From the NCBI GenBank assembly GCA_040002615.1, contig JBDUEE010000003.1, positions 9,671 through 73,670 of the forward strand: a DNA stretch of 64,000 bases, read 5' to 3'. Below are positions 27,744 to 48,062 of this stretch, in pieces (position 1 is the first letter of the stretch; the number at the start of each line of letters is the position of its first letter). The notes under the pieces are model-generated. The model saw only the letters and a list, made by a program, of their open reading frames with translations, did not search any database and was not told the origin of the DNA. This DNA is from Chloroflexota bacterium. GTDB lineage: Bacteria; Chloroflexota; Limnocylindria; QHBO01. Made by a program: the position numbers and the translations under genes.

Positions 27744-27745
27744 GG

Positions 27746-28657: not shown

Positions 28658-28671
28658 GGAGGAGGAAAGTC

Positions 28672-28878
28672 GTGGGAGAAACACTGAGGCGGCTTGCGAG
28701 CCGCACATTCGACACGGTGACCGAGCGACTGCGCTCGAGCGAGGCGGGGCTAACGACGCTCGAGTACGTCATCGGCGCCGGCATCATCCTGGTCGTCTTG
28801 TCCGCTGGCATCCTGGCCTGGAATCAAGGCCTGGTCCAGAAGATCGGCGAGCTGGTGACCCAGCTGCTGTCGGGCTGA
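28672..28878 (+). CDS. flp: Flp-family type IVb pilin (prepilin with G/LTTLEY processing motif)
   Basis: GTG start after strong RBS GAGGAGGAGGAA; VGETLRRLASRTFDTVTERLRSSEAGLTTLEYVIGAGIILVVLSAGI... = G/xxxxEY Flp motif + hydrophobic stretch, 68 aa. Confidence 0.7.
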   Translation: MGETLRRLASRTFDTVTERLRSSEAGLTTLEYVIGAGIILVVLSAGILAWNQGLVQKIGELVTQLLSG

Positions 28879-29282: not shown

Positions 29283-29767
29283 TCCGTCCGCGCGGAGGGG
29301 ATGTGCGCGGCCAGGTGGCCCTGTACGCGGTGCTGCTGTTCCCGATCCTGATGCTCGTCTTCGCGCTGGTGCTGGCGGTCGGCACGCTGGAGGGGACTCG
29401 TGCCCGAACGCGAGCGCAGCTCGACATGGCGGCCTTGACCGCGACACAATCACTCGACTTCGCGGCCCTCGCCCAAGGCGAGCAGCCGCAATTGGTGGCA
29501 GGTGAGGCGGACCGACTGGCGCGCGAGTATCTCGTGCGCAACCTGGCGACGCTCGATTTGCCCGTGTCCGCAACAAGCATCGCCGCCGCGGCCGAGGTCA
29601 ACGTCATGGCACCCGGCGATCGCGACCCGATCAGCGGCGCCCTCGTCAGCGTTCCCACCGTCTCGATCCGGGCGACCGTCCCAGCCCGTGTGCCGCTCCT
29701 CAGTCTGGTCGGGCTTGGGCCGATCGTGAACGTGACTGTCTCCGGATCCGCGGCGGCGCGGACATGA
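29279..29767 (+). CDS. TadE/TadG-like pseudopilin (second)
   Basis: GTGA overlap; ...DVRGQVALYAVLLFPILMLVFALVLAVG TadE-like N-terminus. Confidence 0.45.
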   Translation: MIRPRGGDVRGQVALYAVLLFPILMLVFALVLAVGTLEGTRARTRAQLDMAALTATQSLDFAALAQGEQPQLVAGEADRLAREYLVRNLATLDLPVSATSIAAAAEVNVMAPGDRDPISGALVSVPTVSIRATVPARVPLLSLVGLGPIVNVTVSGSAAART

Positions 29768-30321
29768 CCTTCGATCGTCTCGGCCGCTGGCGCCTACCGG
29801 CTATCGCTGGGCTCTCGCTGCTCATCGCTCTGACCGTGGTCATCGCGATCCTGCTTCTCGGACGGGCACCGACCGTGATCGACGGGCCGCCGTCGCCTTC
29901 GGCCACTCAGCCTACTGATGCGTCGCCACCACCAGACGACACGCCCGAGGCGGCGGTGCGTGCATTCTTCGAGGCCTTCGCCGAAGCGCGCGAAACGGAC
30001 GATCCGGCGCTCATCGAGCCCTTTGTGAACGGCACGGATTCATCGGCCTATCAGACGGCCGCCGGGTTCCTCCTCGGACAACAGGAAGTCGGTAAGGCGT
30101 CAGTCACGACCGTGCAGAAGCTCTCCGACTTCGACGTCGAAGTTGACGGAATGCGTGCCATCGCCGAGTTCACCTATGTCGCCGGTGGCTATGACATAGA
30201 TCTCGAATCAAGGGAGCCACTGGAGAGTCCGTCGATCCTCGAGCCGAGTCGCGTCCGCGCTGAGCTGGCTCGCGTCAATGAGACGTGGCTATTGGATGGC
30301 TACGAGGAGGTCACCGAGTGA
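29764..30321 (+). CDS. membrane-anchored NTF2-like-fold protein, possible VirB8/TcpC analogue
   Basis: N-terminal TM then AAVRAFFEAFAEARETDDPALIEPFVNG...IAEFTYVAGGYDIDLES (NTF2/SnoaL-like pattern); ATGA overlap. Confidence 0.3.
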   Translation: MTFDRLGRWRLPAIAGLSLLIALTVVIAILLLGRAPTVIDGPPSPSATQPTDASPPPDDTPEAAVRAFFEAFAEARETDDPALIEPFVNGTDSSAYQTAAGFLLGQQEVGKASVTTVQKLSDFDVEVDGMRAIAEFTYVAGGYDIDLESREPLESPSILEPSRVRAELARVNETWLLDGYEEVTE

Positions 30322-31538
30322 AGCGCCTCCGACGGGTGGCCGCGGCGAGCGGTCTTGCGTTGACCATGCTCATGACGACTGCAGCAGTCGCATTCGGTTA
30401 CGACGATCCAATTCAGGTCAAAGTCGAGACGTGGACATCTGAGGACGGCCGCGCGTACGTCGGGGTGCAGGCCGCGGCCGAGTGGGCCGTGCCGGCGACC
30501 GAGACGACCGCCGCCGACACAACCTACTACTCGCGCTGGGACCTGATGGGTATCACGCAGGCCTACAACCAGTTCTGGTGGGTGTGGGTCTATCGCACGG
30601 CTGATGACTCGCGGGTCAACGTCAGCTCGCCGATCACGCTCTTCACCAGCGATCGCCAGCCAGGGATCGGGATCCGCCCGGAGGCGCAGGGCGAGCTGAG
30701 CCTATACCTCGATGTCGCGGTCAACCCCGTCAGCGGGCCGGCGCGCTCGGCGCGGACGATCAGCGCCGAGCTGACCACCGGCTGGCTCGACGCCGTTGGC
30801 GGCGTCATCAGCGCGTACGTCATCCACGACTCAGTGACGGTCGAGGGATGGACCGTCGACTTCGGCGACGGCTCGGTCGAGACCCTCCCGCCGCAACCGG
30901 GCAACCAGGAGCGCCTGTCGGTTCAGCATCGGTACGCCGAAGCGGGCAGCTTCGACGCGGTCGTCACGGCGCGTGTCAGCGGCCAGGCGTACGCCGCCTT
31001 CTTCGCACCGGGCGGCGTCCCGGTGGAACGGGTGATCCCGTGGCAGCTTGACATCACCAACAGCGCGACCGGCATCAGCGCCCTGCCGATCGAGTACGTG
31101 CCGCCGGTGGTCGAGGTCGGAGCCAGCCCGTCAGGCATCCTGACCGACGGCACGGTCATCGAGCCGGACACTGACGGGCACGCCGCGCTGTGGTGGCCAC
31201 GCGGTCTGCTGTGCGAGCTCTTCCCACGCGCCACCGTGGTAACCGAGGGCTTCATGCGGTCCAGCGGCGTCACGATCGGCGGCGCCACCACTCGCCTCGT
31301 CGGCTATCGGTACGAGGCCGCCGTCAACAACGCCTCGGCGGCAACTGCATCCGGTCACTACGCCGCCGGCGAACCGATCCGCATCCAGTGGAATACGCCG
31401 CTGCCGGCTCAGGGCAGCTACCCGGTGCGCCTGGTCCTCGAGCTCGAAACGACCTACGACGACGACACCGTCCGCACCTACGAAGCTGCCGGCACGGTGG
31501 ACATCACCGTCGTCTACAGCGCGGTGGGCGGCTCGTGA
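30318..31538 (+). CDS. secreted protein with PKD-like domain (possible pilus-associated adhesin)
   Basis: GTG start, signal peptide VKRLRRVAAASGLALTMLMTTAAVAFG; WTVDFGDGSVETLPPQPGNQERLSVQHRYAEAGSFDAVVTARV matches PKD signature (WxFGDG...HxYxxxGxYxVxL). Confidence 0.5.
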   Translation: MKRLRRVAAASGLALTMLMTTAAVAFGYDDPIQVKVETWTSEDGRAYVGVQAAAEWAVPATETTAADTTYYSRWDLMGITQAYNQFWWVWVYRTADDSRVNVSSPITLFTSDRQPGIGIRPEAQGELSLYLDVAVNPVSGPARSARTISAELTTGWLDAVGGVISAYVIHDSVTVEGWTVDFGDGSVETLPPQPGNQERLSVQHRYAEAGSFDAVVTARVSGQAYAAFFAPGGVPVERVIPWQLDITNSATGISALPIEYVPPVVEVGASPSGILTDGTVIEPDTDGHAALWWPRGLLCELFPRATVVTEGFMRSSGVTIGGATTRLVGYRYEAAVNNASAATASGHYAAGEPIRIQWNTPLPAQGSYPVRLVLELETTYDDDTVRTYEAAGTVDITVVYSAVGGS

Positions 31539-32312
31539 ACGGTATCGGCCCAGAGCCCCGCTCCGACTCGTTGATCGTCCTGATCCCGAGCCCGCTGCTC
31601 GGCCCGTATTCGTGGTCCTTGGTTCATCACGAGCTGGCTGAGCGCGGCTAGGATGCGCTGGTCTCGGATGATCTGCACGACCCAGTCGGGCGGCAGCCCT
31701 GCTGGCGGCGCACGGTCGGCGGCGTCGAGGCCAGGCTGCGGGATTCCGAGGAAGAAAGGCCGGTCGTCCTGGTCGCCCACAGCGGCGCCGGTCCGCTGCT
31801 GCCCGCCATCGGCGCGATCGTGCAGCAGCCGATCGCCGCTTACCTCTTCGTCGACGCTGGTCTACCGAGCGGGGGCAACAGCCGGCTTGAGGCGATCGCG
31901 ACCGAGGATCCGACATCCGCCGCCGAGCTGGGCGCCGCTCTGGACGCTGGCCGGCGCTTCCCCGCCTGGACCGATGACGATCTGCGCCAGCTCGTCCCTG
32001 AACCGGATCGGCGGCAGGCGCTGCTAATCGAGCTTCGGCCGCGAGGGCGGGACTACTGGACCGAGGAACTGCCCGACGTCGCGGTTGGCCCGACGCGCCG
32101 TGCGGCTACCTCACGTTCAGCCCTCCATACCTGTCCGCAGCCGAGCACGCGCGGCGCGCCGGGTGGCCGGTGCGCCACCTACCAGCGGGTCATTTCCACC
32201 AGCTCGTCGATCCGGCCGCCGTGGCCGACGCACTGGTCGACCTGCTCGCCGATTTCTCGATCCGGTCACAACGCAGGGGTGCAGCCGCGGCACTGAAGGG
32301 AGTCACGACATG
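31536..32312 (+). pseudogene. alpha/beta-hydrolase-fold gene, degraded: in-frame TAG (31649-31651) where a Tyr is expected plus a frameshift near 32090
   Basis: VNGIGPEPRSDSLIVLIPSPLLGPYSWSLVHHELAERG*DALVSDDL...RPVVLVAHSGAGPLL (nucleophile elbow)...[frame change]...CGYLTFSPPYLSAAEHARRAGWPVRHLPAGHFHQL (catalytic His). Sits inside the coupled operon with GTGA/ATGA overlaps at both ends. Confidence 0.55.
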
Positions 32313-33005
32313 AGAACCAACCGTGGGGCGTACGTCGCCATCTTCGTCGTGGCCAGCCTGGTCGCCGCCGGGGTCTACTACCTGGCACAGCCGCGCGCCG
32401 ACGTGGTCCGCGCCCGCGCCGACATCGCCGTCCTGACGCTCGTCACCGCCGACATGGTCGAGGTCGTCAGGGTCAGCCCCGGTGACCGATCTGACGACGC
32501 CGCGACATCGATCGCCGACGTCGTCGGGCAGTACGCCGCCATGCCGATCCTAGCCGGGCAGTTCGTCGACCGCCGCGCTCTGGAGTCGACCCCCGGCGCG
32601 CAGGCCTTTGGCTTCGGCGCGCCATTGCCTCCCGACCATGTCGCCTTCGCCATCGCGGTCGAGCCGGCGCAGGCGGTGGGCGGTGCGCTGACACCCGGCG
32701 CCCTCATCGACGTCATCGCGGTGCCCAACGCGCTCAAGACGCTGCCCGCCGACGTCGAGTCGGTGCCGGAGGCGACGGTGCTCGGCGAAGGCCTCGTCGT
32801 GCTGGCCTTGCGCAGCGTCGACGGCAGAGCGCTGACCGACCCCGCCGCCAGCACGCAGAGCGTCACCAGCCTGCCGCCGCGGCTGGGCAGCGTGGTGGTC
32901 GCCGTGCCCGCCGCCGAGCTTCCCGACTTTGCCAGCGCGTCACTGACCTCGACGTTGTACCTGGCGCTCAACGGCCAGGCTGATGGGGAGCCAGCCTCGC
33001 CGTGA
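32310..33005 (+). CDS. cpaB: CpaB/RcpC-like Flp pilus assembly protein (TM + SAF domain)
   Basis: MRTNRGAYVAIFVVASLVAAGVYYL (TM) then ADIAVLTLVTADMVEVVRVSPGDRSDDA...GQFVDRRAL (SAF-like). Confidence 0.6.
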   Translation: MRTNRGAYVAIFVVASLVAAGVYYLAQPRADVVRARADIAVLTLVTADMVEVVRVSPGDRSDDAATSIADVVGQYAAMPILAGQFVDRRALESTPGAQAFGFGAPLPPDHVAFAIAVEPAQAVGGALTPGALIDVIAVPNALKTLPADVESVPEATVLGEGLVVLALRSVDGRALTDPAASTQSVTSLPPRLGSVVVAVPAAELPDFASASLTSTLYLALNGQADGEPASP

Positions 33006-35209
33006 GAGCGCTCATGCGCCGCGCAGCGCGGCCGGCGGCCAAGGCCGCGGATCCGACGCCCTGGCCGTCGCTATCGGCGGACGCCGAGCTCGTCCACGCC
33101 GATGGGCAGCTGCTGGCCGGGTTCGAGCTCGGGCCGCTCAATCTGGAACTGCTCGCTGAAGCCGAGCGAGAGGCATCGCTGGAGGCGCTGGCCGCCCTGT
33201 ACGACGCCATCCCGCGTCCGTTCCAGCTGCTGTCAGTACCCGCTGCGCGCGACCCGAACGACCACCTGGCGCACATGCAGGCCGTCGTCGCCGGTCGTCG
33301 TGCCAAGACCGCGTTCGCCTCCTACGCAGCGCTGTACCGCGAGCTGGCCGCCGCGCCGCGGCGTCCATTGCGGGCCACCTATCTGATCGTCGGCGCCGGT
33401 TCCGAGGCCGAGCTGCGGCGGATCGCCGAACTGGTGCGCCGCGTCGGGGAGGAACGTGGCGTGGAGCTGCGTCACCTGACCGGCGCCGAGCTGACCGAGC
33501 TGTGGGCAACCCTCGCCGGAGCCGGGAGTGAGCACCGGCTTTCGGTCCACACCGCGAATGGCGAGGGAGTCCTGGCTGGTCTTGTGTTCGGCCGCCGCTG
33601 GCCGTCGCAGGTGCCGCCCGGTTGGCTGGCAGGCCTGCTGGCAACGCCGGGGCTGACGGCGTTGTCGATGCGCGCGCCGCCGCTGTCGCGCGCCGAGGCG
33701 ATGAGCTTCATGACCGCCCGCCTGCGGCATGCACGCGCCGGCGAACGGCTGGCCTCCGAACGCGGCGAGGTCGAGGATCCCGAGCGACAGCGGATCGGCG
33801 CCACTGCGCTCTCGGCGCGGCGCGCGACGCAGGCCGGGCAGGGCCGCATCTACTTCGCCGACACGGTTCTGCTGATTGCGGCGCCCGACCGCGCCACCCT
33901 CCACGAGCGGATCGAGGCGGTTCGCCTCGAGGCCCGCAGCCAGCAGCTCGAGGTCGAACTCGCCAGCTTCCGCATCGACCAGGCCTGGCAGAGTGCGCTG
34001 CCGGGTCCGCATCCCCGTCCGCTTGCCGAGCGCAACCTCGATACGCCCAGCCTCGCCGCCAGCCTGCTGCACACCAGCTCCGACCTGTACGAGCCGACCG
34101 GTCACCTGTACGGCCGGCAACGCTCGTCTGGGGCGCCGATCGTGCTCGACCGCTTCGCGCGGCCCAGCCACAACGCCATCGTGCTGGGTCAGACCGGCAC
34201 TGGCAAGACCATGTTCACCGGCGCCGAGATGAGCCGCTGCTTTCTGCGCGGCATCCGCGTGCTGGGCGTCGATCCGCTGGGCGATTTCCGGCGCCTGGCA
34301 GAGGAGTTGGGCGGGACCTATCTGGAGCTCGGCGCGCCCGGCGTCGGGCTCAATCCGTTCACGCTGACCGGAGCCGGCGATCCAGGCGCCTTCAGCGCCA
34401 AGCTGGCGATGCTGTCACGGCTCGTTGGCGCCATGGCCGGAGGGCTGAGCCGCGACGAGCGTCCGGCGCTCGACCGAGCACTGCGAGCAGCCTACCAGTC
34501 GGCGCGTATCGGCCCCGACCCGGCCACCTTCGATCGGCAGGCGCCTATGTTGGCCGACCTCGTCAACCACCTCGCCGGCGAGGCCGGCGGCACCTCGCTG
34601 ACGCACCGCCTCGAGCGCTGGGCGACCGGTTCGCTGGCCGACGTGCTCGGCAGCAACGTTGATGTGCCGCTCGATCGACGCATGCTGGTCATCGGGCTAG
34701 CGGCGATCGGCGATCCAGAGGTCCGCGCGGTCGCGCAGTACGCCGCACTGAGCGTCCTGTGGGACGCCGTCCGGCGCGACCTGGCGCCCAAGCTGGTCGT
34801 GGTTGACGAGGCTTGGAAGGTCATGCGCCAGCCGTCGGGGGCCGACTTCGTCGAGGAGCTGGCGCGCTCGGCGCGCCACTACCACGCCGGCCTGCACCTG
34901 GCCACGCAGGACATCGTCGAATTCCTGCGCTCTGACTATGGCGAGTCGATCGTCAAGCAGTGCGACATCAGGGTCTTGCTGGGCCAGACGCCGGAGGCCG
35001 CCGACTCGCTGACGCGCTACTTCGACCTGACTCCCGCCGAGCGCCGCGCCCTGCTGCACGCGCGGCCCGGCGAGGGTCTTCTGTTCGTCGGTGGTTCCCA
35101 CGCCGCCTTTGAGGCAACCGTCAGCCGCCGCGAGTACGCCGTGCTCACCACCCGGCCGGCTGACCTGATCCAACCCGCTTTGAGAGAGCCAACCCCCGAT
35201 ACCTCGTGA
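33002..35209 (+). CDS. virB4: VirB4/TrbE/CagE-family T4SS ATPase
   Basis: Walker A LGQTGTGKTM, Walker B LVVVDEAWKVM (DEAW hallmark), TQDIVEF motif; ~400-aa N-terminal VirB4 domain; GTGA overlap with cpaB. Confidence 0.8.
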   Translation: MRALMRRAARPAAKAADPTPWPSLSADAELVHADGQLLAGFELGPLNLELLAEAEREASLEALAALYDAIPRPFQLLSVPAARDPNDHLAHMQAVVAGRRAKTAFASYAALYRELAAAPRRPLRATYLIVGAGSEAELRRIAELVRRVGEERGVELRHLTGAELTELWATLAGAGSEHRLSVHTANGEGVLAGLVFGRRWPSQVPPGWLAGLLATPGLTALSMRAPPLSRAEAMSFMTARLRHARAGERLASERGEVEDPERQRIGATALSARRATQAGQGRIYFADTVLLIAAPDRATLHERIEAVRLEARSQQLEVELASFRIDQAWQSALPGPHPRPLAERNLDTPSLAASLLHTSSDLYEPTGHLYGRQRSSGAPIVLDRFARPSHNAIVLGQTGTGKTMFTGAEMSRCFLRGIRVLGVDPLGDFRRLAEELGGTYLELGAPGVGLNPFTLTGAGDPGAFSAKLAMLSRLVGAMAGGLSRDERPALDRALRAAYQSARIGPDPATFDRQAPMLADLVNHLAGEAGGTSLTHRLERWATGSLADVLGSNVDVPLDRRMLVIGLAAIGDPEVRAVAQYAALSVLWDAVRRDLAPKLVVVDEAWKVMRQPSGADFVEELARSARHYHAGLHLATQDIVEFLRSDYGESIVKQCDIRVLLGQTPEAADSLTRYFDLTPAERRALLHARPGEGLLFVGGSHAAFEATVSRREYAVLTTRPADLIQPALREPTPDTS

Positions 35210-36165
35210 GGCGCCGCGCGGGCTGCGGCTGCCTGGGCTGCGGCGCGCTGCTGTTCGTCACGTTCGCGATCCTGACCGGCTCGGTCGGCGTGCTCGCCGG
35301 CAACTGGGGCGGGCTGGCCCGGCCAGCGGTGCCCGACTCTGCCGCCGCGGTGGACGACATCCCCGTCGACTACCTGACCCTGTATCAGGACGCCGGTCGG
35401 GCCTTCGGCCTCGACTGGCCGGTGCTGGCCGCCGTTGGACGGGTCGAAAGCGATCATGGCCGCCTGACCGCCGGCTGCGAGCCGAACGAGGCCGGTGCCG
35501 TCGGGCCGATGCAGTTCCTGCCCGCCAGCTTCGCCCAGGCGTCGGGCTGGGCCGGGCTCGCTGCGGCCGACATCTGCGACCCCGACGATGCCGTCCCGGC
35601 CGCAGCTGCCTACCTGCGCCACTTCGGCGCGCCCGACGATTGGCGCCGCGCACTCTTCGCCTACAACCACTCGCAGGCCTACGTCGATCTGGTCCTGGCC
35701 TGGGCCGCCCGCTACGGCCACGCCACCGCGGTCGTCTGGCCGCTCGATGGACCGATCACCCAGTTCTTCGGTCCGACCGACTTCGAGCTCCAGCCGCCGC
35801 TGTGGTACCGCGGCCGCTGGTATGAGCACTTCCACGCCGGGATCGACATCGGCGCACCGGTCGGCACCCCGGTCGTCGCCATCGCCGCCGGGGTCGTCAC
35901 CTTCGCCGACGAGATCGCCGACGGCGCGGTGGTGGTCGAGATCGAGCACGCGCCGGGCGTGACGTCGGCCTACGCCCATCTCCAGCGCGACCCGCCGGTG
36001 CGCACCGGCCAGCCGGTTACGGCCGGCGAGGTCATCGGCGCCGTCGGTCTGACCGGCATCACCACCGGCCCCCATCTGCATCTGGCCGTCTTCGCCGGCG
36101 GCGAGTTCGTCGATCCGTTGTCCGTCCTGCCAGCCCGCATCGAGGAGGTGCCCCGTGGCCGCTGA
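35206..36165 (+). CDS. bifunctional cell-wall hydrolase: lytic transglycosylase (SLT-like) + M23 metallopeptidase (VirB1/TcpG/PrgK analogue)
   Basis: AAVGRVESDHG...GPMQF (SLT catalytic Glu and GxMQ), C-terminal HAGIDIGAPVGTPV ... GPHLHLAV (M23 HxxxD and HxH motifs); TM anchor at N-terminus. Confidence 0.8.
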   Translation: MRRRAGCGCLGCGALLFVTFAILTGSVGVLAGNWGGLARPAVPDSAAAVDDIPVDYLTLYQDAGRAFGLDWPVLAAVGRVESDHGRLTAGCEPNEAGAVGPMQFLPASFAQASGWAGLAAADICDPDDAVPAAAAYLRHFGAPDDWRRALFAYNHSQAYVDLVLAWAARYGHATAVVWPLDGPITQFFGPTDFELQPPLWYRGRWYEHFHAGIDIGAPVGTPVVAIAAGVVTFADEIADGAVVVEIEHAPGVTSAYAHLQRDPPVRTGQPVTAGEVIGAVGLTGITTGPHLHLAVFAGGEFVDPLSVLPARIEEVPRGR

Positions 36166-36212
36166 GTTCCGTTCCCACCATCCGTCCCCCATCACACCGC
36201 GAGGAGATCGCC

Positions 36213-38555
36213 ATGGCCGTTGAGTTCCCGATTCCCTACGAGCTGTTCCTGATCGTGCCGGCGCTGTTCGGCGCAGCGGTGCTCGCCGTCCAGCTGGGTC
36301 CGCGCCTCGTCGCCGCCCGCCGCCAGGCGGCATACGAGCGGGTGATCGCTACCGAGCTCGAGCGGCTCGAGATCGCGGTCCCCGCCAATCAGCGTCTCGA
36401 CCCCGATACGCCGGTCGAGCTCATCCGCGCCCTCCATCCCCGACAACGGCGCGGCGTCGACCGTTGGGCGGTGGGGTGGCCGCCGTTCGAGGTTCGCGTG
36501 GTGGCTAGCGACGGCGAGCTGGCCTGGCAGGTCGACGCCCCGCGCCAGCTGAGCCATCAGCTCATGGCGGCCGTGCGCAGCCTGTATCCGGGCAGCGAGA
36601 TTGCCAAAATTGAACGCGGGGAAGCCGCGGCGACCGCGACGGCGGTCGGTAGCCTGGCCGCTCCTGGTCACTGGCCGCTGGGCGATCCGGCTGAGCCCGG
36701 ACGGGCGCTGGTTCAGCTCGCAGCGCTGCTCGAACAGTCACCGCTCGATCACGGTGAAGTACGACTGCGGCTCCTCGCCAAGCCGATCGCGCCCGAGAGC
36801 TGGCAGCGCGACCTGTATCCCGAGGAGCAGCGTGGGCGCTCGTTCGGGAGCATCGCCGGCGAGGCGCTGCTGGACGCGATCTTCAACCGCCCCAGCAGCA
36901 TCGGCCACGACGTTCCGGTCGTGCTGTCCGCCGCCGAGCGGGAGGCGCGATCGCGCAAGCGGGTGGCGCAGGTCGGGTTCGAGGTCGGGATGCTGCTCGA
37001 AGTTGCAGGACTCGACGTCGCCGAGGCCAAAGCCCTGCTGTGGCAGCTGATCGACTTCGCCGACGCCGTCGGTGACGGGCGCCAGGCGATCGCCTGGACC
37101 ATCCGGCCCGGAGCGGTCGAACGTCCGCGCCGCGCGCCGTTGGGCGACTGGGAGCTCGCCAAACTGTGGCGCCTGCCGGACGCCGCCTTCGACGACGCCC
37201 ATCTCCAGCGCCAGCGACCGATGATCGGACCGACCCCGGCATCCGCGCCGCGCGGCGGGCTCATCACCATCGGCGAGACGCGCCAGGGAGCCCTGCAGCT
37301 CAGCGTCGAGCAACTCGCGCGCCACATGCTGGTGGTGGGCGCCACCGGCGCCGGCAAGAGCACGATGCTCGTCGATCTGGCGCTGGGTGTGCTGGACACG
37401 CCCATCGGGGCGACCGTGATCGACCCGCATGGCGACCTGGCCACCGACATCCTGAGTCGCGTTCCCGCACAGCACGCCGACCGGGTGCGAGTGCTGCGCC
37501 TGGCGGACAAGGCCCATCCGCGGGGGTTCAACTTCCTCGAGCGTGCCGATCTCGACGAGGCGCAACTAGTGGCAAGCGAGTTCGTGGCTCTGTTCGAGGA
37601 TCTGTGGCCCAAGTTCTGCGGCCCCAAGATGGCGCACTACCTGCGCAAGTCGCTGCTCACCATGCTGTCGCACCCCGAGCCGCAGACAGTGATCGAGCTG
37701 GTCCGGCTGCTGACCGACGACGACCTGCGCGAGAACGAGTACATGCGCTACGTCGCGGGCGACCCGCTGCTGTTCGACTTCTGGCGCAACGAATGGCCGT
37801 CGCGCAGCGCGCGCGAACACGACAGCTCGATCAAGGCGGTCCTGAACAAGCTCGGCGCGTTCGTCAGCTACCACTCGATCCGCCACGTCGTGGGCCAGGG
37901 CGTCAGCTCGCTGCGCCCGCGCGACGTGATGGATCGCGGCGACCTGCTGGTGGTCGATCTATCCCGCGTCGGCGGCGACAACGCCAGCCTGTTCGGTGCG
38001 ATGCTCATCGGCCGCTACTACATCGACGCCGTCGGCCGTCAGGGAACGGCAATTGGCGAACGTCGTCAGCACCTGCTCATCGTCGACGAGGCGCAGCGCT
38101 TCAGCACCCGCGCCATGGACAAGATCCTGGTCGAGGGTCGCAAGTTCGCCCTGGCCGGTGTGCTGGCCACCCAGTCACTGCATGGGGCCGATCGGCGCCT
38201 GCACGACACGATCGTGACCAACGTTGCCACCATGGCCCTGCTGTCGCCGGGTGCCGATGACGCCAGGGAGCTGGCACGCCTCTTCACCCCGCTGGGCGAA
38301 ACCGATCTGCTGGCGCTGCAGCGTCACGAGTTCGCGTTGCGCATGCCCGGTACCGACGACCGCCCGGCGGTCTATGGCGGACGGGTGCGGCTGCCCGCCG
38401 CCGGAGACCCAGCTCGAGCCGCCGCTCTCGTGGCCGCCAGCGACCAGCGCGACGGTCGCCCACTCGAAACGGTCCGGGGCGAGGTGCATCGCCGCGCGGG
38501 AGGCGACCGCGACGACCGACCGCCGAACGCGGTCAGCGACGATCGGGCGCGATGA
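36213..38555 (+). CDS. type IV coupling-protein-like ATPase (VirD4/TraG-TraD or HerA/FtsK-like DUF87 family)
   Basis: Walker A HMLVVGATGAGKSTML, DPHGDL, Walker B LLIVDEAQRF, VLATQS; N-terminal TM; 780 aa. Confidence 0.65.
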   Translation: MAVEFPIPYELFLIVPALFGAAVLAVQLGPRLVAARRQAAYERVIATELERLEIAVPANQRLDPDTPVELIRALHPRQRRGVDRWAVGWPPFEVRVVASDGELAWQVDAPRQLSHQLMAAVRSLYPGSEIAKIERGEAAATATAVGSLAAPGHWPLGDPAEPGRALVQLAALLEQSPLDHGEVRLRLLAKPIAPESWQRDLYPEEQRGRSFGSIAGEALLDAIFNRPSSIGHDVPVVLSAAEREARSRKRVAQVGFEVGMLLEVAGLDVAEAKALLWQLIDFADAVGDGRQAIAWTIRPGAVERPRRAPLGDWELAKLWRLPDAAFDDAHLQRQRPMIGPTPASAPRGGLITIGETRQGALQLSVEQLARHMLVVGATGAGKSTMLVDLALGVLDTPIGATVIDPHGDLATDILSRVPAQHADRVRVLRLADKAHPRGFNFLERADLDEAQLVASEFVALFEDLWPKFCGPKMAHYLRKSLLTMLSHPEPQTVIELVRLLTDDDLRENEYMRYVAGDPLLFDFWRNEWPSRSAREHDSSIKAVLNKLGAFVSYHSIRHVVGQGVSSLRPRDVMDRGDLLVVDLSRVGGDNASLFGAMLIGRYYIDAVGRQGTAIGERRQHLLIVDEAQRFSTRAMDKILVEGRKFALAGVLATQSLHGADRRLHDTIVTNVATMALLSPGADDARELARLFTPLGETDLLALQRHEFALRMPGTDDRPAVYGGRVRLPAAGDPARAAALVAASDQRDGRPLETVRGEVHRRAGGDRDDRPPNAVSDDRAR

Positions 38556-38590
38556 ACGCGCTGGGTCAGGCTTGCGCGTGGACGGTAATT

Positions 38591-38630
38591 GGGACGCCAA
38601 AGGGGGCGCCAAAGGGGGCGCTGACGCGCG
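38591..38630. repeat. 12-bp direct tandem repeat cgccaaaggggg x2 embedded in a dyad gggacg...cgctgacgcgcgc; candidate oriT/nic region upstream of Replic_Relax gene
   Basis: gggaCGCCAAAGGGGGCGCCAAAGGGGGcgctgacgcgcgcaataaacg read directly; in the 130-bp gap between T4CP gene and relaxase-like gene. Confidence 0.45.
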
Positions 38631-38688
38631 CAATAAACGTCCACCAGATCAGTTCGCGGCTGTGGGTCGATCAGAGGGAATGCTCTCG

Positions 38689-39630
38689 ATGAGTGCGGCC
38701 TTCCGCAGCGGTGATGTGCACTCGCGCTCGCACCCGCGTCGAGTCGACCTCGCGGCGCTACCCGCCCGTGACCGCGCCGTGCTGCGCCTGCTGTACCGCA
38801 TGGAAGCAGCGACCGCACGCCAGCTCACCGACCTCGCCTACCGGCGAGCACGCAAGGGGCAGTACCGTCTGCAACAGCTCTGGCGTCTGCGCCTCACCGA
38901 GCGGACCTCCGTAGCGACCGACCACGCTGGCGCTCCGCCCTACGCACACCGTCTGACCTACCACGTGCGCCAGCGCCTCGGCTACCGAACCCGTCGACCG
39001 CAGCTCAGCAGTCGCCTGCGCCACCTCCTCGATAGCCACGACGTGGTATGCGCGTTGGCGCAGCCCATCCCCGACGCACCGGATGGACCGATGCAGGCCT
39101 GGCTGACGGCTCCGATGGCGGGCAGGGTCCTCGGCAGTGCGATCGAACCGGACGGCGTGGTCATCCTCCAGCTCAAGAAGCGGTCCGCCGTCGTGTGCAT
39201 CGAGCTCGACGAAGGTACCGAGCACCATCCGGTCATCATCGACAAGCTCGAACGCTACGCGGCCCAGCTCCGCGATCGGGGTAGCTGGCACCTGCTGCTC
39301 GTCGTTCCTGGGCGCGACCGGTTGGCACGCGTGCGACGCCTGGCCCGACGGCCGGGTCTCGAAATGCGCGGGCACGCGTGGGTCACGCTGCTGGCGGACG
39401 TCCGAAGACGCGGCCTCAATGCGGACGCCCATCCCGCCTGGTCGGTGGACGGTCCTGTCGCGCTCGCCGACCTGATCGATGACCAGCGCGACCGAAGCTC
39501 GGCTGCGCCCGTTGCCAGCGATGCGTGGCTCGACCTGTTGGCCACCGGCGGCGTAGAGGACTTCGACAGAATTCTCGCCGGAACGGCGAGCCTGGCCGTT
39601 TCCGCTCTCGAGCAGGGTCACAACGGCTAG
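38689..39630 (+). CDS. Replic_Relax (replication-relaxation) family protein, putative relaxase/initiator of the element
   Basis: wHTH-like N-terminus LPARDRAVLRLLYRMEAATARQLTDLAYRRARKGQYRLQQLWRLRLTER...GAPPYAHRLTYHV and LRHLLDSHDVVCAL motif typical of PF13814 proteins of actinobacterial plasmids/ICEs. Confidence 0.55.
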   Translation: MSAAFRSGDVHSRSHPRRVDLAALPARDRAVLRLLYRMEAATARQLTDLAYRRARKGQYRLQQLWRLRLTERTSVATDHAGAPPYAHRLTYHVRQRLGYRTRRPQLSSRLRHLLDSHDVVCALAQPIPDAPDGPMQAWLTAPMAGRVLGSAIEPDGVVILQLKKRSAVVCIELDEGTEHHPVIIDKLERYAAQLRDRGSWHLLLVVPGRDRLARVRRLARRPGLEMRGHAWVTLLADVRRRGLNADAHPAWSVDGPVALADLIDDQRDRSSAAPVASDAWLDLLATGGVEDFDRILAGTASLAVSALEQGHNG

Positions 39631-39688
39631 CAGACACACAACGCGCGTTCATCTTGGACCTCGACCAGATTGCGCCTACCGGCGCCAA

Positions 39689-40411
39689 TCAGAAAAGTGT
39701 GCTGCGCTCCGCTTCCTGAAGGATGCGGACGAGGGAGATGGTTGCCTGTGCGGTCGCGAAGGCCATGAGGCGTGTCGGCGCCTTGTGATGAGTCAGAGCG
39801 TTTGCCAGGACGATGAGCTTGCGGATGAGGCCCCGAACCGCCGAGTTGGCGGCGCCGCTCAGCATCATGTCTGCGTAGAAGCCGAGTCGCTCCTCGGCAT
39901 CGGATCGTCCCGGGATCGGTTGGCCTGCCGGCACCATCACATCCATGAACGCGACGTTTGCAGCCTCAATGACGATCTCCCGGCACCGCCGTCCGATGTC
40001 GGCCCAGTCGTCGGTCGAAGTGCCGCGCTCCAGCTCACCGATCATCTCAGCCAACCGCGCATCCACCGTCTTCCACGTTGGATCACCAACGGACCCGGTG
40101 TCATCCGGAACCTGGGCAGCAGCAGCGCGCGCCTCAAGATCATCCAGGAGTGGTCCGACGAGCTCGTTGATCTGGGCGCGCCGGTCTGCGTAGCCGTCCG
40201 CCCAGGCTCGATACCACTCCCAGAGGCTGCGCCATGGGAACGGATCGGCCAGGCCGATCGCGTCCAGAGAGAAGCGCAACTCACGGCGCCGCTCCTGATA
40301 TCCATCGTCTACGTCGTCGATGCGCGGCCCGCCCGTCGCCACGGCGATGAGCAAAGCAGCCTGTTCCTTGACGAGGTCAATCAAGTCGTCGAGGGAGCGA
40401 GCGGTCTTCAT
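39689..40411 (-). CDS. module gene B, right copy (paralog of 10441-11430, lacks Tudor-like tail)
   Basis: MKTARSLDDLIDLVKEQAALLIAVATGGPRIDDVDDGYQERRREL... aligns along its length with left copy (~50-60% aa identity). Confidence 0.5.
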   Translation of the reverse strand: MKTARSLDDLIDLVKEQAALLIAVATGGPRIDDVDDGYQERRRELRFSLDAIGLADPFPWRSLWEWYRAWADGYADRRAQINELVGPLLDDLEARAAAAQVPDDTGSVGDPTWKTVDARLAEMIGELERGTSTDDWADIGRRCREIVIEAANVAFMDVMVPAGQPIPGRSDAEERLGFYADMMLSGAANSAVRGLIRKLIVLANALTHHKAPTRLMAFATAQATISLVRILQEAERSTLF

Positions 40412-41779: not shown

Positions 41780-44650
41780 TTGAAGAAACCGCCGAAGTGG
41801 ACCCGCGGCTCGGAGTGGCTGCGCTGGGATCCGCACATCCATGCGCCCGGCACATTGATGAACGATCAGTACGCGGGCGACTGGACCGGGTACTTCAATG
41901 CAATTGCGTCGGCTGACCCAGCGCCAGTGGCGTTGGGGATCACCGACTACTTCACCTTGGCCGGGTACAGGGAGTTCCGCAACCAACGCCCACCTGGATC
42001 GCTTCCAGCGGTCCAGATGGTATTCCCCAACGTCGAGCTGCGGCTTACGACCGAGACGAGACGCGGCCACGCGATCAACCTCCATCTGCTTGTCTCGCCA
42101 GACGATCGGAGGCACGTCGAAAAGTTCGAAGAGCGGCTATCTCACGTCCGCTTCGAATACGGCCCAACGCACTTTCCATGCAGCGATCGAGGGCTCATAG
42201 ATCTTGGTCGTGCCTTCCGCAATGACGAAACGCTGGCAGAGGCTGCTGCGATGTCAATTGGCGCCGGCCAGTTCAAGGCGGAATTCAGAGAGATCCTCGA
42301 GCTCTTCGACGACGGATGGTTTCGCGACAACGTCTTGATGGCGGTCGCCGCGGGTCAGGATGGCCTCGGCGGGCTGTCGCAGGACTCTCAGTGGGCGGCA
42401 GTACGCGAGAATATCGGCCGCGCGTCCGACATCATCTTCTCGGGTTCTGAGAACGAGCGGTCCTTCTGGTTGAAGCCTGGAGGGACCCTGCCCCGTCGTC
42501 CCTGCCTCCACGGCTCCGACGCGCACTCGCTCGCGAAGGTCCTGAAGCCGGACGAGGCTCGCCTCTGCTGGATCAGAGGCGATGCGACTTTTGAGAGCCT
42601 GAAGCAAGCCGTCATCGAGCCCGAGCGGAGGGTCTTCATTGGGCGTACGCCACCACGCGGCGCCTCTGAAGGCTATGTGATGTCCGACCTGGTGCTGAGC
42701 GGCGCTTCTTGGATCGAGAACGATCAGCTCTCCTTCAACGACGGGCTGGTTACCATCATCGGCGCGAAGGGCTCCGGCAAGACGGCCCTGGCCGACCTGT
42801 TGGCACTCTTCGCTGGCGCCGACGAGCCCGCGCCGGGCAACGCCTCGTTCATTAGGAAGGCCCGACATTTGCTTGGGGGATTGAAGGGCGTATTGACCTG
42901 GGGCGACAGGACTTCTCAGACAGCGGTTGCGCAGCCCCAACCGCAGCCGTCAACCGAACCGCGAGTCCAGTATCTATCGCAGCAGTTCGTTGAGCGCTTG
43001 TCGGCCCCGGAAGAACTCGGAGAGCCACTTGTAGAAGAGATCGAGCGCGTCGTCTTCCATGCGATACCCGAAGAGAAGCGCATGCAGGCAACCTCCTTCG
43101 GCGAGCTCCGCGACCTACTCCTTGAGGATGCGCGCGCCAGCCAGGCGTTTCACAGGGGGACAATTACGTCCCTGACGAGAGCCGTCGCTGCCGAGATCGA
43201 CCTGAAACGCAGCATCCCGAGTCGCCAGAAGAAGGTCGAGGAGGCCGAGCGGGAGCGCAAAGGACTGCAGAAGGACATTGCATCGATACCGGCCGCGGCC
43301 AGTGCGGAAAAGGCCAAGGTCCACACGGATGCGGCGAACGCTCTTCAGGCGTTGCAGCAGGCCAATGCGGTAAAGGAGCGCCGCGCCAAGGACCTTAGCC
43401 TCCTTGCTGGAGAAGTGCGACGCCAACTCCTAGCCGCAGACCAATCGTGGGGCCAGCTCAAGGTCACCTATCCGGATCTCATCGACGATACGACCTGGAC
43501 CGCGTTGAGGCTCCGGCTTGATCCGGCTGGCTTGCAGCGCCTTGCGGACCTTGAGGCGGAAGCCCGCAAAGAGGCGGAGGCCCTCCAGGACCAGGGGCTG
43601 CCCTCCGTCGCCCGGCCAAGTGCCACCGCCTCTAAACCGGCCGGCCTCGAACAACTCAAGGCACGTCTGGAGCAGGCCGTGAAGGAACTCGGTCTTGACC
43701 GGACCAATGCCACGCGCAAGGTCGACCTGGAAAGACGGCTCGTCGGCGTCAAGGCAACTGAAGAGCAAGCGAGGAGAGAGTTGGCCAACGCTCTTGGGGC
43801 GGAAGCGCGGCAAAAGGAAGCCCACGAGAAGCGGCTCGAAGCCTATGACGCGGTCTTCCAGACCCTAAGCCAGGAAGAAGACGAACTAGAGAGGCTCTAC
43901 GCGCCCCTCCTGGGTCGGTTGACTGGGTCCAAATTGGCGTTCACCGTTCAACGCGTGGTCGGACTCAAGGCATGGGTTAAGAAGGGTGAGGAGCTGCTGG
44001 ATTTGCGCACCGCACCGTTCAGCCAACAGGGGTACCTAGAAGAGCAAGCCCGATCGCTGCTGTTGAAGGCGTGGCTCACAGGTACGCCCACCGAGGTGCG
44101 TGCGGCCATGCGTGCATTCCTCGAAAAGGTTGCCGGTGATGCGCTGAAGTCGCTTGTCCAGAGCGCGAGCCCAATGGATCTTGGCGAGTGGTTGTTCTCC
44201 ACCAATCACATTCGCGTCCGCTACGGCATCGAGTACGAGGGCGTCGAAATCTCCAATCTGTCTCCTGGCACGCGGGGCGTCGTTCTCCTGACGCTTTACC
44301 TGGGCTTGGACGAATGGGACCCGCGTCCGCTCGTGATCGACCAGCCCGAGGAAAATCTCGACCCAAGCTCGATCTATGACGACCTCGTCCCTTGGTTCCG
44401 GCTGGCAGCGAAGCGCCGCCAAATCGTGATGGTGACGCATAACGCCAATCTCGTAGTGAACACAGATTCAGACCAAGTCATCGTGGCGCGCGCAAAACGC
44501 GACAAGCCGCAGGGATTGCCACACGTTACGTACGAGGCAGGCGGGCTGGAGGACCCAGACATCAGGGAAGCGGTGTGCAGCCTGCTGGAGGGCGGCAAGG
44601 AAGCGTTCCGCCTGCGGGGTGAGCGCTACAAGCTCAACGTTCGGGCGTAG
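41780..44650 (+). CDS. single-chain PHP-phosphoesterase + SMC/Rad50/SbcC-like ABC ATPase fusion (candidate defence or DNA-processing nuclease)
   Basis: N-term WLRWDPHIHAPGT...HAINLHLLV...CLHGSDAHS (PHP His clusters); Walker A IIGAKGSGKTALADLL; ~350 aa coiled-coil (Glu/Lys/Ala/Leu-rich); C-terminal signature region and Walker B/D-loop LVIDQPEENLD, H-loop VMVTHNANL. Confidence 0.7.
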   Translation: MKKPPKWTRGSEWLRWDPHIHAPGTLMNDQYAGDWTGYFNAIASADPAPVALGITDYFTLAGYREFRNQRPPGSLPAVQMVFPNVELRLTTETRRGHAINLHLLVSPDDRRHVEKFEERLSHVRFEYGPTHFPCSDRGLIDLGRAFRNDETLAEAAAMSIGAGQFKAEFREILELFDDGWFRDNVLMAVAAGQDGLGGLSQDSQWAAVRENIGRASDIIFSGSENERSFWLKPGGTLPRRPCLHGSDAHSLAKVLKPDEARLCWIRGDATFESLKQAVIEPERRVFIGRTPPRGASEGYVMSDLVLSGASWIENDQLSFNDGLVTIIGAKGSGKTALADLLALFAGADEPAPGNASFIRKARHLLGGLKGVLTWGDRTSQTAVAQPQPQPSTEPRVQYLSQQFVERLSAPEELGEPLVEEIERVVFHAIPEEKRMQATSFGELRDLLLEDARASQAFHRGTITSLTRAVAAEIDLKRSIPSRQKKVEEAERERKGLQKDIASIPAAASAEKAKVHTDAANALQALQQANAVKERRAKDLSLLAGEVRRQLLAADQSWGQLKVTYPDLIDDTTWTALRLRLDPAGLQRLADLEAEARKEAEALQDQGLPSVARPSATASKPAGLEQLKARLEQAVKELGLDRTNATRKVDLERRLVGVKATEEQARRELANALGAEARQKEAHEKRLEAYDAVFQTLSQEEDELERLYAPLLGRLTGSKLAFTVQRVVGLKAWVKKGEELLDLRTAPFSQQGYLEEQARSLLLKAWLTGTPTEVRAAMRAFLEKVAGDALKSLVQSASPMDLGEWLFSTNHIRVRYGIEYEGVEISNLSPGTRGVVLLTLYLGLDEWDPRPLVIDQPEENLDPSSIYDDLVPWFRLAAKRRQIVMVTHNANLVVNTDSDQVIVARAKRDKPQGLPHVTYEAGGLEDPDIREAVCSLLEGGKEAFRLRGERYKLNVRA

Positions 44651-46196: not shown

Positions 46197-46979
46197 ATGT
46201 CCATGCATTCGCGCAAGTACCTGCGCATCGAAGGGGACCTGGCCACGCTGGTGACCGAGGTGACCGAGCGCGAAGTCGCGCTCGACGATCTTCTGTCCAG
46301 ACTGGCCGAGCAGCGGTCGGCGATCAGCGGGATGCTGCCCGCCGGCTGCCGCTTCTGGGTCCGCTCTCCCGAAGGGCGGGAGGTGTTCGTGGTCGAACAG
46401 CTCCCCATGCGCCGCCAGGTCGAGTACCACGCCAGTAATCGATACGGCAGCGAGCCGGTGATCCACCGACTCGCCCTGCCGTACGTGGTGTTCGTGGTCT
46501 CAACCGCCGACGGTCGCATCGAGAGCCTCGCCACCTTCTTCCGTACCAGCGCGCTGCGATCACTTGACGATCCGCTCGAGCACAGCTGCCTGCCCAACAC
46601 CTCCGACGACGGCATCGTCTGTCTCGGATCGGTTCATGTTGGCGGTGACAGCCTGGCCGAGCGCACCGACGGACTGATTGGAGCGTTCTGGGGGTCACGC
46701 TTCAACGCCGACATCCGGCGCCATCCGCTGCCGTTCAGCGGTGGCTTCCGGGCGTGGGCGTCTCGCTCGCGACGGGATCCGATGGCGGGCCTGTCGGCCC
46801 AATACGACCGCTACTGGCGCAGCCTGCGCCAGGTGGTGGCCGCGGGGGCCGGCATGAGCCCCACCGACCTGCCCGGCGCGCCGGTCGACGGCGAACAGGC
46901 GCAGGCGACGGTGGAGACACCGACGCCCAGCCAGGCACCGCCTCCGCAAGGAGGTGAGCCCGATGCGGAAGCTGCTTGA
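46197..46979 (+). CDS. UBC-type E2-like protein (BilB-like)
   Basis: HSCLPNTSDDGIVCLGSVHVGG matches the E2 active-site HPN-x(6-7)-C-L motif; 260 aa. Confidence 0.5.
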   Translation: MSMHSRKYLRIEGDLATLVTEVTEREVALDDLLSRLAEQRSAISGMLPAGCRFWVRSPEGREVFVVEQLPMRRQVEYHASNRYGSEPVIHRLALPYVVFVVSTADGRIESLATFFRTSALRSLDDPLEHSCLPNTSDDGIVCLGSVHVGGDSLAERTDGLIGAFWGSRFNADIRRHPLPFSGGFRAWASRSRRDPMAGLSAQYDRYWRSLRQVVAAGAGMSPTDLPGAPVDGEQAQATVETPTPSQAPPPQGGEPDAEAA

Positions 46980-47226
46980 GTCGATGGCCCGCTGCGGGAC
47001 GCTCGAGTCGACCCGCACGACGGCACTGCTCAGCCCGCGCCGAGCGGTGTACGCCACCGATGGCTCGATCCCCGGCGAACTGGCCAACGCTGCCTTCGCC
47101 GTGGCGGCCAAGCTGCTCAGAGATGGAGGCTTCCCCCTCCGCGACGAGCGGCTGGCCGAGCCGAGACGCTTCGCTCAGCTCGAGCGCATCGTCTACTGGC
47201 TGCCCGAGACCGAGGTGGGCTCATGA
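46963..47226 (+). CDS. small hypothetical protein within Ubl-conjugation operon
   Basis: 87 aa, RBS AAGGAGGTG 6 nt upstream of ATG; no domain recognised. Confidence 0.3.
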   Translation: MRKLLESMARCGTLESTRTTALLSPRRAVYATDGSIPGELANAAFAVAAKLLRDGGFPLRDERLAEPRRFAQLERIVYWLPETEVGS

Positions 47227-48062
47227 GCCTCTTTCCGATCATCGCCGCGGACGAGTCCGCGGCCGAGGAGGTCTCACTCCCCGCCTTCCTGGTGGCCCGC
47301 GACGGGCTCTACCTGCGCAAGCGCAGCCTGCTTGGGCTGTCGCAGGTGCAGGTCGACGAGGTGGCCCACCTGCCAGCGGCACGCGAGTACCTCGAGTACG
47401 CGTTACCCAAGGTGCCCGCCTCGCTGATGGCTGAGGTGGTCGGCTTCTTCCGCGCCATCTGGTCGCGGCAGCGCTCGGAGGCGCTGGCGCTGCTGACCTG
47501 GGATGGCTCAGCCTTCGGGTTGATCGTTCCCAAGCAGCGCGCCGGAGCCGCATCGGTCAAGCACCGGCTCGAGACGAGCGATGTGCCCAGCGGGGCACAC
47601 CTGGTCGGCTCGATCCACAGCCACGGCGCACTGAGCGCCGGGGCCAGCCTGACCGACGAGGCCGACGAGGCCGACTTCGACGGCATCCACGTGGTGGTCG
47701 GCGATGTCGATGAGCGGCGGCCGAGCTATTCGGCCGCGATCGTGGTCGACGGCCGACGCTTCGGCTGTCGCACCAGCCTCGTCTTCGAGCAGCCGCGACG
47801 CTTCACCGAACCCCCGGCCGAGTGGCTGGAGCGGGTGAAGCCGATCGTGACCGCACCGACGAAGGCGAAGGCCAACGGCCACGCCAGGACGAGCGGGAAG
47901 GCTCCATCGACGGAGTCGACCTGGACCTCGCGCGACCGCCATACGCTCGACGGCCTCCTGAGCGAGGCCGTCGGGCTGGCCGCCGAACTGGGCGAGAGCC
48001 TGGTCTATCAGCTGACGCCGATCGCGACGTCGGCTGCGAAAGGAGGAATCTCCGATGCCTGA
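47223..48062 (+). CDS. JAB/MPN (JAMM) metalloprotease-domain protein (BilC-like deubiquitinase/peptidase)
   Basis: HLVGSIHSHGALSAGASLTDEAD = JAMM HxHx7Sx2D motif; ATGA overlap upstream. Confidence 0.6.
   Translation: MSLFPIIAADESAAEEVSLPAFLVARDGLYLRKRSLLGLSQVQVDEVAHLPAAREYLEYALPKVPASLMAEVVGFFRAIWSRQRSEALALLTWDGSAFGLIVPKQRAGAASVKHRLETSDVPSGAHLVGSIHSHGALSAGASLTDEADEADFDGIHVVVGDVDERRPSYSAAIVVDGRRFGCRTSLVFEQPRRFTEPPAEWLERVKPIVTAPTKAKANGHARTSGKAPSTESTWTSRDRHTLDGLLSEAVGLAAELGESLVYQLTPIATSAAKGGISDA

Follow-up and report, generated by a model that had tools for sequence, protein, structure and literature searches.

A phased 12-bp repeat array upstream of a Replic_Relax gene as a candidate compact MOBC origin of transfer in a Chloroflexota element

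The window that we have analyzed is a stretch of 64,000 nucleotides (64 kb) from a Chloroflexota bacterium, within which there is a region that looks like an integrated conjugative element. The transfer operon of this element ends with a gene encoding a Replic_Relax protein, a relaxase of the MOBC family, and just 5' to that gene lies a 67-bp core (38578-38644) in which short repeats phased at 12 bp are bracketed by an inverted pair of sequences. By analogy with the enterococcal plasmids pAD1 and pAM373, we think it rather probable that this core is the recognition part, bound by the relaxase, of a compact MOBC origin of transfer (oriT), and the repeats are best read as a relaxase binding site and not as the nick site. 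The proposal is made because the core has the last mating-pore gene on its 5' side and the MOBC relaxase gene on its 3' side, as has been reported for the oriT of MOBC systems, and because its 12-bp-phased units parallel the repeats of pAM373 and pAD1, which in pAD1 are bound by the relaxase TraX. It is made also because the core is selected, because its layout persists family-wide, and because the relaxase is modeled as a winged helix with a nuclease-like core. An oriT at this place had been suggested in a preliminary description of the sequence, by the reasoning that applies to classical relaxases. The candidate is supported by what is found upstream of homologous genes and, by analogy, by the architecture of MOBC origins, but the classical reasoning has to be adjusted for a relaxase that is predicted not to be of the HUH type, and for repeats that would be bound and not nicked.

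The core is contained in an intergenic gap of 133 bp on the + strand (38556-38688), in agreement with the earlier estimate of about 130 bp. The gap begins after the TGA stop codon (38553-38555) of a gene for a putative type IV coupling ATPase of 780 amino acids (36213-38555, + strand), which is the last mating-pore gene, and ends at the ATG (38689) of the relaxase gene, whose identity as a Replic_Relax gene is confirmed by Pfam family PF13814. The ribosome-binding site of the relaxase gene, GAGGGA (38674-38679, + strand), lies 9 nt before the start codon and is kept in all aligned loci. The start is ATG or GTG in all the relatives, and the alignments back the ATG at 38689 as the start in the window.

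Read in its 12-bp register, the core is CGGTAATTGGGA / CGCCAAAGGGGG / CGCCAAAGGGGG / CGCTGACGCGCG / CAATAAACGTCC. The array thus comprises four units of the CGNNAA type on the + strand at 12-bp phase, two of them perfect, inside GTGGACG...CGTCCAC. The perfect units are unit 2 (38595-38606) and unit 3 (38607-38618), each with the sequence CGCCAAAGGGGG. Unit 1 (CGGTAATTGGGA, 38583-38594) is degenerate, with an invariant CG..AA in 12-bp register with units 2 and 3, and unit 4 (CGCTGACGCGCG, 38619-38630) is also degenerate and in register, with CG.T.A invariant across the loci. The left arm of the inverted pair (GTGGACGGTAATTG, 38578-38591) overlaps unit 1, and the right arm (CAATAAACGTCCAC, 38631-38644) is probably an inverted copy of that unit. 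The arms are 14 nt in length and 86% complementary, and they bracket the repeats. The repeat string quoted in the preliminary description is present at 38591-38631, and its 12-bp unit does occur twice in perfect tandem (38595-38618) in the output of Tandem Repeats Finder (TRF), which delimits the repeat at 38591-38621 with a period of 12, 2.6 copies, 94% matches and a score of 55. Two copies of CGCCAAAGGGGG followed by CGC make up the perfect part of the tandem (38595-38621). The flanking dyad had been given as gacgc/gcgtc, which is incorrect; GACGC occurs twice but as a direct repeat, and the inverted pair is that formed by the two arms above.

Self-match runs of at least 15 at lags of 7-30 are found at two places in the window, compared with an expectation of 0.01 from 100 dinucleotide shuffles. 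On autocorrelation of the gap the best lag is 12, with a value reached in none of 500 shuffles. A 7-bp inverted repeat alone is ordinary in such G+C-rich DNA (G+C content 67%), and several more occur within the same 350 bp. Within the 64 kb both the CGCCAAAGGGGG 12-mer and the GTGGACG...CGTCCAC pair are confined to this place, and other near-matches are at chance level. Because the site is single copy in the window, we favor an oriT rather than the operator of a regulon. A G-quadruplex was considered and ruled out; there are only three G-runs, and these are not kept in two of the related loci (L008 and L022).

The close relatives of this locus, with relaxases of 69-100% identity, come from metagenomes and from a Chloroflexota metagenome-assembled genome (MAG). 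A search for the repeat 5' to homologous Replic_Relax genes had been proposed in the preliminary description. All the close relatives whose sequence extends upstream carry the core, and distant relatives carry phased repeats built from other units. Over 11 loci the mean pairwise identity of the core (38578-38644) is 0.83. The corresponding values are 0.64 and 0.63 at the third codon positions of the 3' end of the ATPase gene and the 5' end of the relaxase gene respectively, 0.58 in the 22-bp spacer that follows the ATPase stop codon (38556-38577), and 0.69 in the spacer before the ribosome-binding site (38645-38672). Because its identity exceeds that of both the third codon positions and the adjacent spacers, the core is under purifying selection at the DNA level.

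The pattern of substitution within the core is informative. The outer GTGGACG and CGTCCAC, that is only the outer 7 bp of the arms, are invariant or nearly so in the 11 loci, as are the CG..AA of units 1-3 and the CG.T.A of unit 4, with the 12-bp register kept exactly throughout. Variation is seen in the G-run half of the units, which is TAGGGG, TCCAGG (L008), TCCGCG (L022) or AGCGCG. Fixed CG..AA together with a free G-run half is the pattern expected if a protein contacts the units. There are no compensatory changes in the dyad in these loci, where inner positions of the arms are often unpaired, and RNAalifold gives a covariation term of -0.37. Taken at the level of the alignment this favors protein contacts over a conserved hairpin, and leaves room for pairing of the 7-bp arms to form a hairpin or cruciform.

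Three further observations were made among the relatives. The relaxase gene of L017 (4500-5754) and L018 (1790-2844), with 86% identity to that of the window, lies in an ordinary chromosomal neighborhood, with genes for a metallo-beta-lactamase-fold protein, glycoside hydrolases and a sugar ABC transporter. Only the inverted-repeat and repeat core and the final ~110 bp of the ATPase gene precede it, and the locus is a truncated remnant of such an element. Besides a complete copy (L001), the Chloroflexota MAG has a second relaxase homologue (L002, 4001-4717, protein P0018), which lacks the first ~60 residues and has a different N-terminus joined on, and there is no repeat core upstream. A tblastn search with the relaxase against the 72,556 plasmids of PLSDB gave no match at E = 1e-3, so that the lineage is missing from that collection, and no relatives were found in viral contigs.

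A profile search returned ~165 more distant relatives of the relaxase at 35-46% identity, of which four were read with their context, together with L015 and L016. The gene order VirB4-like ATPase, SLT-M23 hydrolase, ATPase, Replic_Relax is found in L024 (on a 3.6-Mb contig) and L026, and in L027 the order is Phd/YefM-like, ATPase, Replic_Relax with an integrase gene nearby. Homologues of the 780-aa ATPase occupy the equivalent position in all three loci. Relaxases for which the VirB4-like/hydrolase/ATPase/relaxase order is kept are only 39-45% identical to that of the window. In L024 (6001-6054), L026 (6001-6048) and L015 (746-772) the true start of the relaxase gene probably lies 3' of the one called, as is indicated by the conserved N-terminus (xTYRF / VDLxALP) and by a GGGAC box 4-5 nt before a later GTG or ATG. 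The proteins of these loci would then be shorter, and their gaps ~105-120 bp. With the starts corrected, all the gaps are ~100-135 bp in length.

Within these gaps the layout is kept and the unit is changed. In L024 the gap contains GCGCCAGATGGG repeated 2.4 times with a period of 12 (TRF score 58), then an inverted copy, with an outer pair GGTGCGCC...GGCGCACC. That of L026 contains 2.6 copies of ACATTCGATCGA, again with a period of 12 and followed by an inverted copy. In L027 there are GC-rich inverted repeats of 17-21 nt with 11-bp periodicity, and in the clade of L025 and L015 a 21-nt inverted repeat encloses, in L025, two copies of CGTCGGGTG at 11 bp. Lag 12 is the best in the autocorrelations of the window, L022, L024, L026 and pAM373, with values reached by no more than one of 500 shuffles, and lag 11 is best in L027 (9 of 500) and in a pAD1-type plasmid (17 of 500). 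Repeats with a phase of 11-12 bp are thus found at the equivalent place in three of the four types of distant gap, each type with its own unit, and two of them have an inverted copy. In L024 and L026 the element that matches the right arm is clearly the local repeat unit in inverted orientation, and on this comparison the dyad of the window is probably unit 1 together with an inverted unit 5. Arrays with a period of 11-13 and a TRF score of 40 or more have a frequency of about one per 10 kb, from which we estimate the chance of finding one in a given 120-bp gap at ~1-2%, and in two of four independent clades at ~1e-3. As judged from these sequences, a layout that persists while its unit changes behaves as would a recognition site co-evolving with its protein. 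A short T-rich motif, (A/G)TTCC(G) or AGTTCG, recurs immediately 3' to the inverted copy in the window (38652-38659) and in L024, L026, L027 and L015. A k-mer test gives it no significance, and it is a weak lead for the position of the nick site.

The relaxase gene (38689-39630, + strand) encodes a protein of 313 amino acids that matches PF13814 over residues 32-195 with E = 6.8e-16 and 59.3 bits, compared with a cut-off of 25.3. PF13814 is the MOBC relaxase family, corresponding to MobC of CONJscan (PMC5357655), and Replic_Relax has been placed in the PD-(D/E)XK nuclease superfamily, where it is usually fused to a helix-turn-helix (HTH) domain (Steczkiewicz et al., PMC3424549). There is no relative of the protein in the PDB at the level of sequence. 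We therefore turn to an AlphaFold2 model, made from an alignment of 14 sequences, with a mean predicted local distance difference test (pLDDT) score of 67.8. The N-terminus of the model is a winged helix (residues 26-89, with helices at 26-38, 43-50 and 54-66 and strands at 70-74 and 85-89), and this is followed by an alpha-beta-beta-beta-alpha-beta core. A Foldseek search of the PDB returned many MarR-family structures with probabilities of 0.99-1.0. The best full-length matches were FokI, PaqCI and the nickase N.BspD6I, with weak E values of 2e-3 to 5e-2 from a model of modest pLDDT. D155, the segment E172-D174-E175 and K186 are conserved in the relaxase family. On the evidence of the model, the relaxase is a winged-helix protein with a restriction-endonuclease-like domain and not an HUH relaxase. 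The NCBIfam model MobC_subf (NF041423) is not matched by the protein; this model is uninformative for either protein, as it gives even the TraX of the pAD1-type plasmid only 21.6 bits, where the cut-off is 200.

The best comparison is with oriT2 of pAD1 and the oriT of pAM373. TraX of pAD1 has a restriction-endonuclease-like active site and an N-terminal winged HTH, and binds five direct repeats of the oriT that lie 70-120 bp from the nick site (nic); no covalent DNA intermediate was detected (PMC12857230). In MOBC and MOBM systems the oriT lies between the mating-pore operon and the relaxase gene, according to a preprint (bioRxiv 10.64898/2026.01.13.699239). We find in pAM373 the order coupling-protein gene, gap, small open reading frames (ORFs), Replic_Relax gene. 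Directly 3' of the coupling-protein stop codon there are 5.5 copies of the 12-bp unit AGGTATGCCTAA (transcribed strand), after which comes a nested inverted repeat with arms of 25 and 18 nt that spans ~142 bp. In the pAD1-type plasmid TGGAAA occurs five times at ~11-bp spacing in the same place, and is followed by a homologous large inverted repeat.

The window resembles both plasmids in the order VirB4-type ATPase, coupling protein, oriT (here the candidate) and Replic_Relax relaxase (TraX or Orf8), in a run of short direct repeats, spaced at 11-12 bp, that begins just 3' of the stop codon of the coupling-protein gene, and in a repeat sequence that differs between related elements while the layout stays. 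The relaxases, too, share an N-terminal winged helix, and the restriction-endonuclease-like domain of TraX would have its counterpart in the predicted core of the window protein. The core of the pAM373 unit, GCCTAAAGG, resembles GCCAAAGG of the window by eye, which may be coincidence. There are also clear differences. The enterococcal sites have five to six repeats, whereas the window has four units, of which two are perfect. Between the large inverted repeat of the enterococcal sites and the relaxase gene there are a further 300-500 bp that contain small ORFs, whereas the whole gap is 133 bp in the window. Apart from the unit cores no alignable similarity between the DNA sequences is apparent by eye, the base compositions are very different, and the proteins are related at the level of the Pfam family only.

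Other systems offer partial parallels. CloDF13, the MOBC prototype of the Enterobacteria, has in MobC a relaxase that is assigned in the literature to the same family. The MOBT relaxases, such as OrfJ (RelSt3) of ICESt3, use their own N-terminal HTH to recognize a distal 'bind' site some tens of bp from nic, but their catalytic fold is that of Rep_trans, and their bind site lacks the arrangement as an array phased at 12 bp. MobC of the Streptococcus suis 89K element was dropped as a comparator, being an accessory protein of a MOBQ-like system.

A number of points weigh against the assignment of the core as an oriT. The enterococcal origins contain a ~140-bp nested inverted repeat that includes nic, with arms of 25-36 nt nested in arms of 18-19 nt, and this is absent from the window. 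The dyad of the window is short by comparison, with 7 conserved bp per arm and no covariation, and it brackets the repeats instead of lying 3' of them. Direct profile comparison with the enterococcal TraX and Orf8 gave no link, and the hidden Markov model of the family aligned with Orf8 of pAM373 over its N-terminal third only, comprising the winged helix and the following H-x-x-D helix. The kinship of the window relaxase with TraX thus appears from their shared membership of PF13814 and from the predicted domain plan. The 780-aa ATPase matches Pfam TrwB_AAD_bind with 22.9 bits (cut-off 20.5) and DUF87/HerA at 1.5e-7, and its NCBIfam matches to VirD4-like, TraD and CedD families are weak and confined to the Walker A region; as a HerA/FtsK/VirD4-superfamily ATPase in the position of a coupling protein it can be called one weakly. 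The gaps of the L025/L015 clade have no significant periodicity on autocorrelation. No nick-site motif emerged, in that no k-mer is common to the gaps of different clades beyond chance. Finally, the array lies 45-110 bp upstream of the relaxase start codon, which is near enough for a plain operator.

The last point leads to the strongest of the competing explanations, that the array is an autoregulatory operator only, through which the winged helix of Replic_Relax or some other regulator controls the relaxase gene, with the oriT located elsewhere. Direct repeats with an inverted copy beside the gene of a winged-helix protein are a common operator layout, a regulatory role for Replic_Relax was predicted by Steczkiewicz et al. 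from the HTH fusion (PMC3424549), and both the conservation and the co-variation of unit and protein would fit equally well. Yet no sigma-70-like promoter was found in the gap, nor any promoter or intrinsic terminator across 38200-39000, using a scan whose promoter rules do not cover this phylum. In L001 and L017 GC-rich sequence stands in place of the sole AT-rich segments of the gap, and the relaxase gene comes at the end of a long and tightly coupled operon on the + strand. Moreover, the repeats at the homologous place in pAD1 and pAM373 belong to a functional oriT. We consider an operator alone to be unlikely, and relaxosome sites commonly do both jobs so that the two explanations are largely non-exclusive. 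It is much less likely that the core acts as an mRNA stem-loop between the cistrons, controlling the processing, stability or translation of the relaxase message. GTGGACG and CGTCCAC can close a hairpin, RNAalifold draws one, and the arms are invariant. However, the single-strand fold of the gap is no better than that of shuffled sequences (z = -0.65), the covariation term is the low one given above with no compensatory change in the closing helix, no Rfam family matches the gap and there is no terminator. An RNA hairpin would in any case leave the 12-bp register of the repeats unexplained.

Similarly improbable, and marginally more so, is an iteron-like replication origin of the excised element, for which the 'replication-relaxation' protein would be the initiator. 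The direct repeats and inverted copy beside the gene of a winged-helix DNA-binding protein are like the iteron and operator arrangement of plasmid Rep proteins. Relaxases of integrative conjugative elements can start rolling-circle replication from oriT, as in ICEBs1, and we count this for the iteron explanation. The name of the family comes partly from a report on plasmid replication (pUA140, reference 156 of PMC3424549). Unlike the Rep arrangement, however, the units are of 12 bp compared with the usual 17-22 bp, the AT-rich stretches of the gap are only 6-7 nt so that there is no unwinding region, and the protein has a nuclease-type domain and ends a transfer operon as TraX does. Replication from this place would most simply be driven by the relaxase from the same oriT. 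The least credible explanation is a chance slippage duplication without function, which the comparative data already contradict. The window does hold other short tandem duplications, but against this stand the expectation of 0.01 such exact tandems per window, the conservation of the core above synonymous sites in 11 loci, and the recurrence of the 12-bp-phased layout with different units in distant relatives.

If the core is the recognition part of an oriT, transfer might begin as follows. The MarR-like winged helix of the relaxase would bind the four CGNNAA-centered units, whose 12-bp spacing would place successive protomers on nearly the same face of the helix, and the inverted copy at the right end, the CGTCCAC arm, would cap the array. 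Binding of the repeats by the relaxase is suggested by analogy with TraX. The complex would then position the C-terminal PD-(D/E)XK-type nuclease domain such that one strand is nicked close to the repeats, and the adjacent coupling ATPase would pass the DNA to the transfer apparatus of the VirB4/Tad-like type whose genes lie upstream. Such a site would be expected to confer mobilization. Given its distance from the start codon, the site may, when occupied, also repress expression of the relaxase. A stronger proposal, which we offer tentatively and hold somewhat less probable than its converse, is that this lineage of integrated elements uses a minimal oriT of ~70 bp in which repeats and inverted copy are nested in a single compact unit immediately 5' to the relaxase gene, with the repeat unit co-evolving with the winged helix of the relaxase as a specificity code, and served by the operon of Tad/Flp pilus, VirB4, hydrolase and coupling ATPase.

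The genes of the transfer operon are packed tightly on the + strand from ~21656 to 39630, and many of them overlap. The operon encodes two Phd/YefM-like proteins, the first gene being one of these (21656-21976), a VirB2/PrgI-like membrane protein, a CpaF-type T2SSE ATPase (25594-26877), two TadB/C-like T2SSF proteins, a Flp-like prepilin (28654-28878), a TadE-like protein and an RcpC/CpaB-like protein. These are followed by the VirB4-like conjugation ATPase (33002-35209; NCBIfam conju_CD1110 6.8e-55 and VirB4_CagE 3.8e-31, and Pfam P-loop_TraG), a cell-wall hydrolase with SLT and M23 domains (35206-36165), all on the + strand, then the 780-aa ATPase and, last, the 313-aa Replic_Relax protein. 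A stretch upstream of the RcpC/CpaB-like gene (31539-31819, possibly to 32309) has no confidently called gene, and the 133-bp gap may therefore not be the sole one of any size in the operon, as it had been called in the preliminary description. No comparable repeat array is present in the other operon gaps, at 31500-31860 and 39600-39800. A gene for a tyrosine recombinase is located at 50066-51010, and there is no tRNA gene in the 64-kb window. The operon brings together a Tad/Flp-type pilus set, a VirB2/PrgI-like protein, a VirB4-like ATPase, an SLT+M23 hydrolase, a coupling ATPase and a MOBC relaxase. RcpC adjoins VirB4 in L026 too, so the combination of pilus and VirB4 genes is conserved.

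Other repeats and genes of the window deserve mention. A second perfect tandem with a 12-bp period, two copies of TTCCTCACACA (21591-21613, TRF score 46), precedes the first operon gene by ~40 bp and is possibly the operator or promoter region for the whole operon. The strongest tandem repeat in the window is a perfect 15-bp repeat of 4.1 copies, GCAGCTGGCTCGTCG (19483-19544, TRF score 124), which forms part of a minus-strand ORF of 555 aa (19296-20963) without a Pfam match. A few kb downstream of the relaxase gene there are prokaryotic genes of ubiquitin-like conjugation (Prok-E2_D and Prok-JAB, 46197-48062), and the same class of position is occupied by ThiF in L024 (11895-12596) and ThiS in L016 (3207-3446). 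This suggests that such genes are a recurrent cargo or accessory module of these elements. Also downstream of the relaxase gene is that of a 956-aa protein (41780-44650) with ATPase motifs of the AAA_21/SMC_N type, from an AbiEii-associated family, and in L016 the relaxase gene is followed by an AbiEii gene. Both are possible defense or addiction cargo.

MOBC relaxases are reportedly among the most abundant in integrative conjugative elements (bioRxiv 10.64898/2026.01.13.699239). The MOBC oriT has been studied in very few plasmids, the named prototypes being pAD1 and CloDF13, and it remains open how a non-covalent, restriction-enzyme-like relaxase brings its DNA to the pore (PMC12857230). An oriT in front of its own relaxase gene is what a specialist would expect, and in that sense the candidate is well supported and unsurprising. 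With a compact footprint, a clear 12-bp register and clade-specific units it would be an easy substrate for the study of binding and nicking, and for swapping of specificity, and it could serve as a mobilization cassette for Chloroflexota-like hosts. If the minimal-oriT proposal is true, it would provide a defined mobilization cassette of 140 bp for a phylum with almost no genetic tools, and a second, simpler model of how non-covalent MOBC relaxases find and cut their origin.

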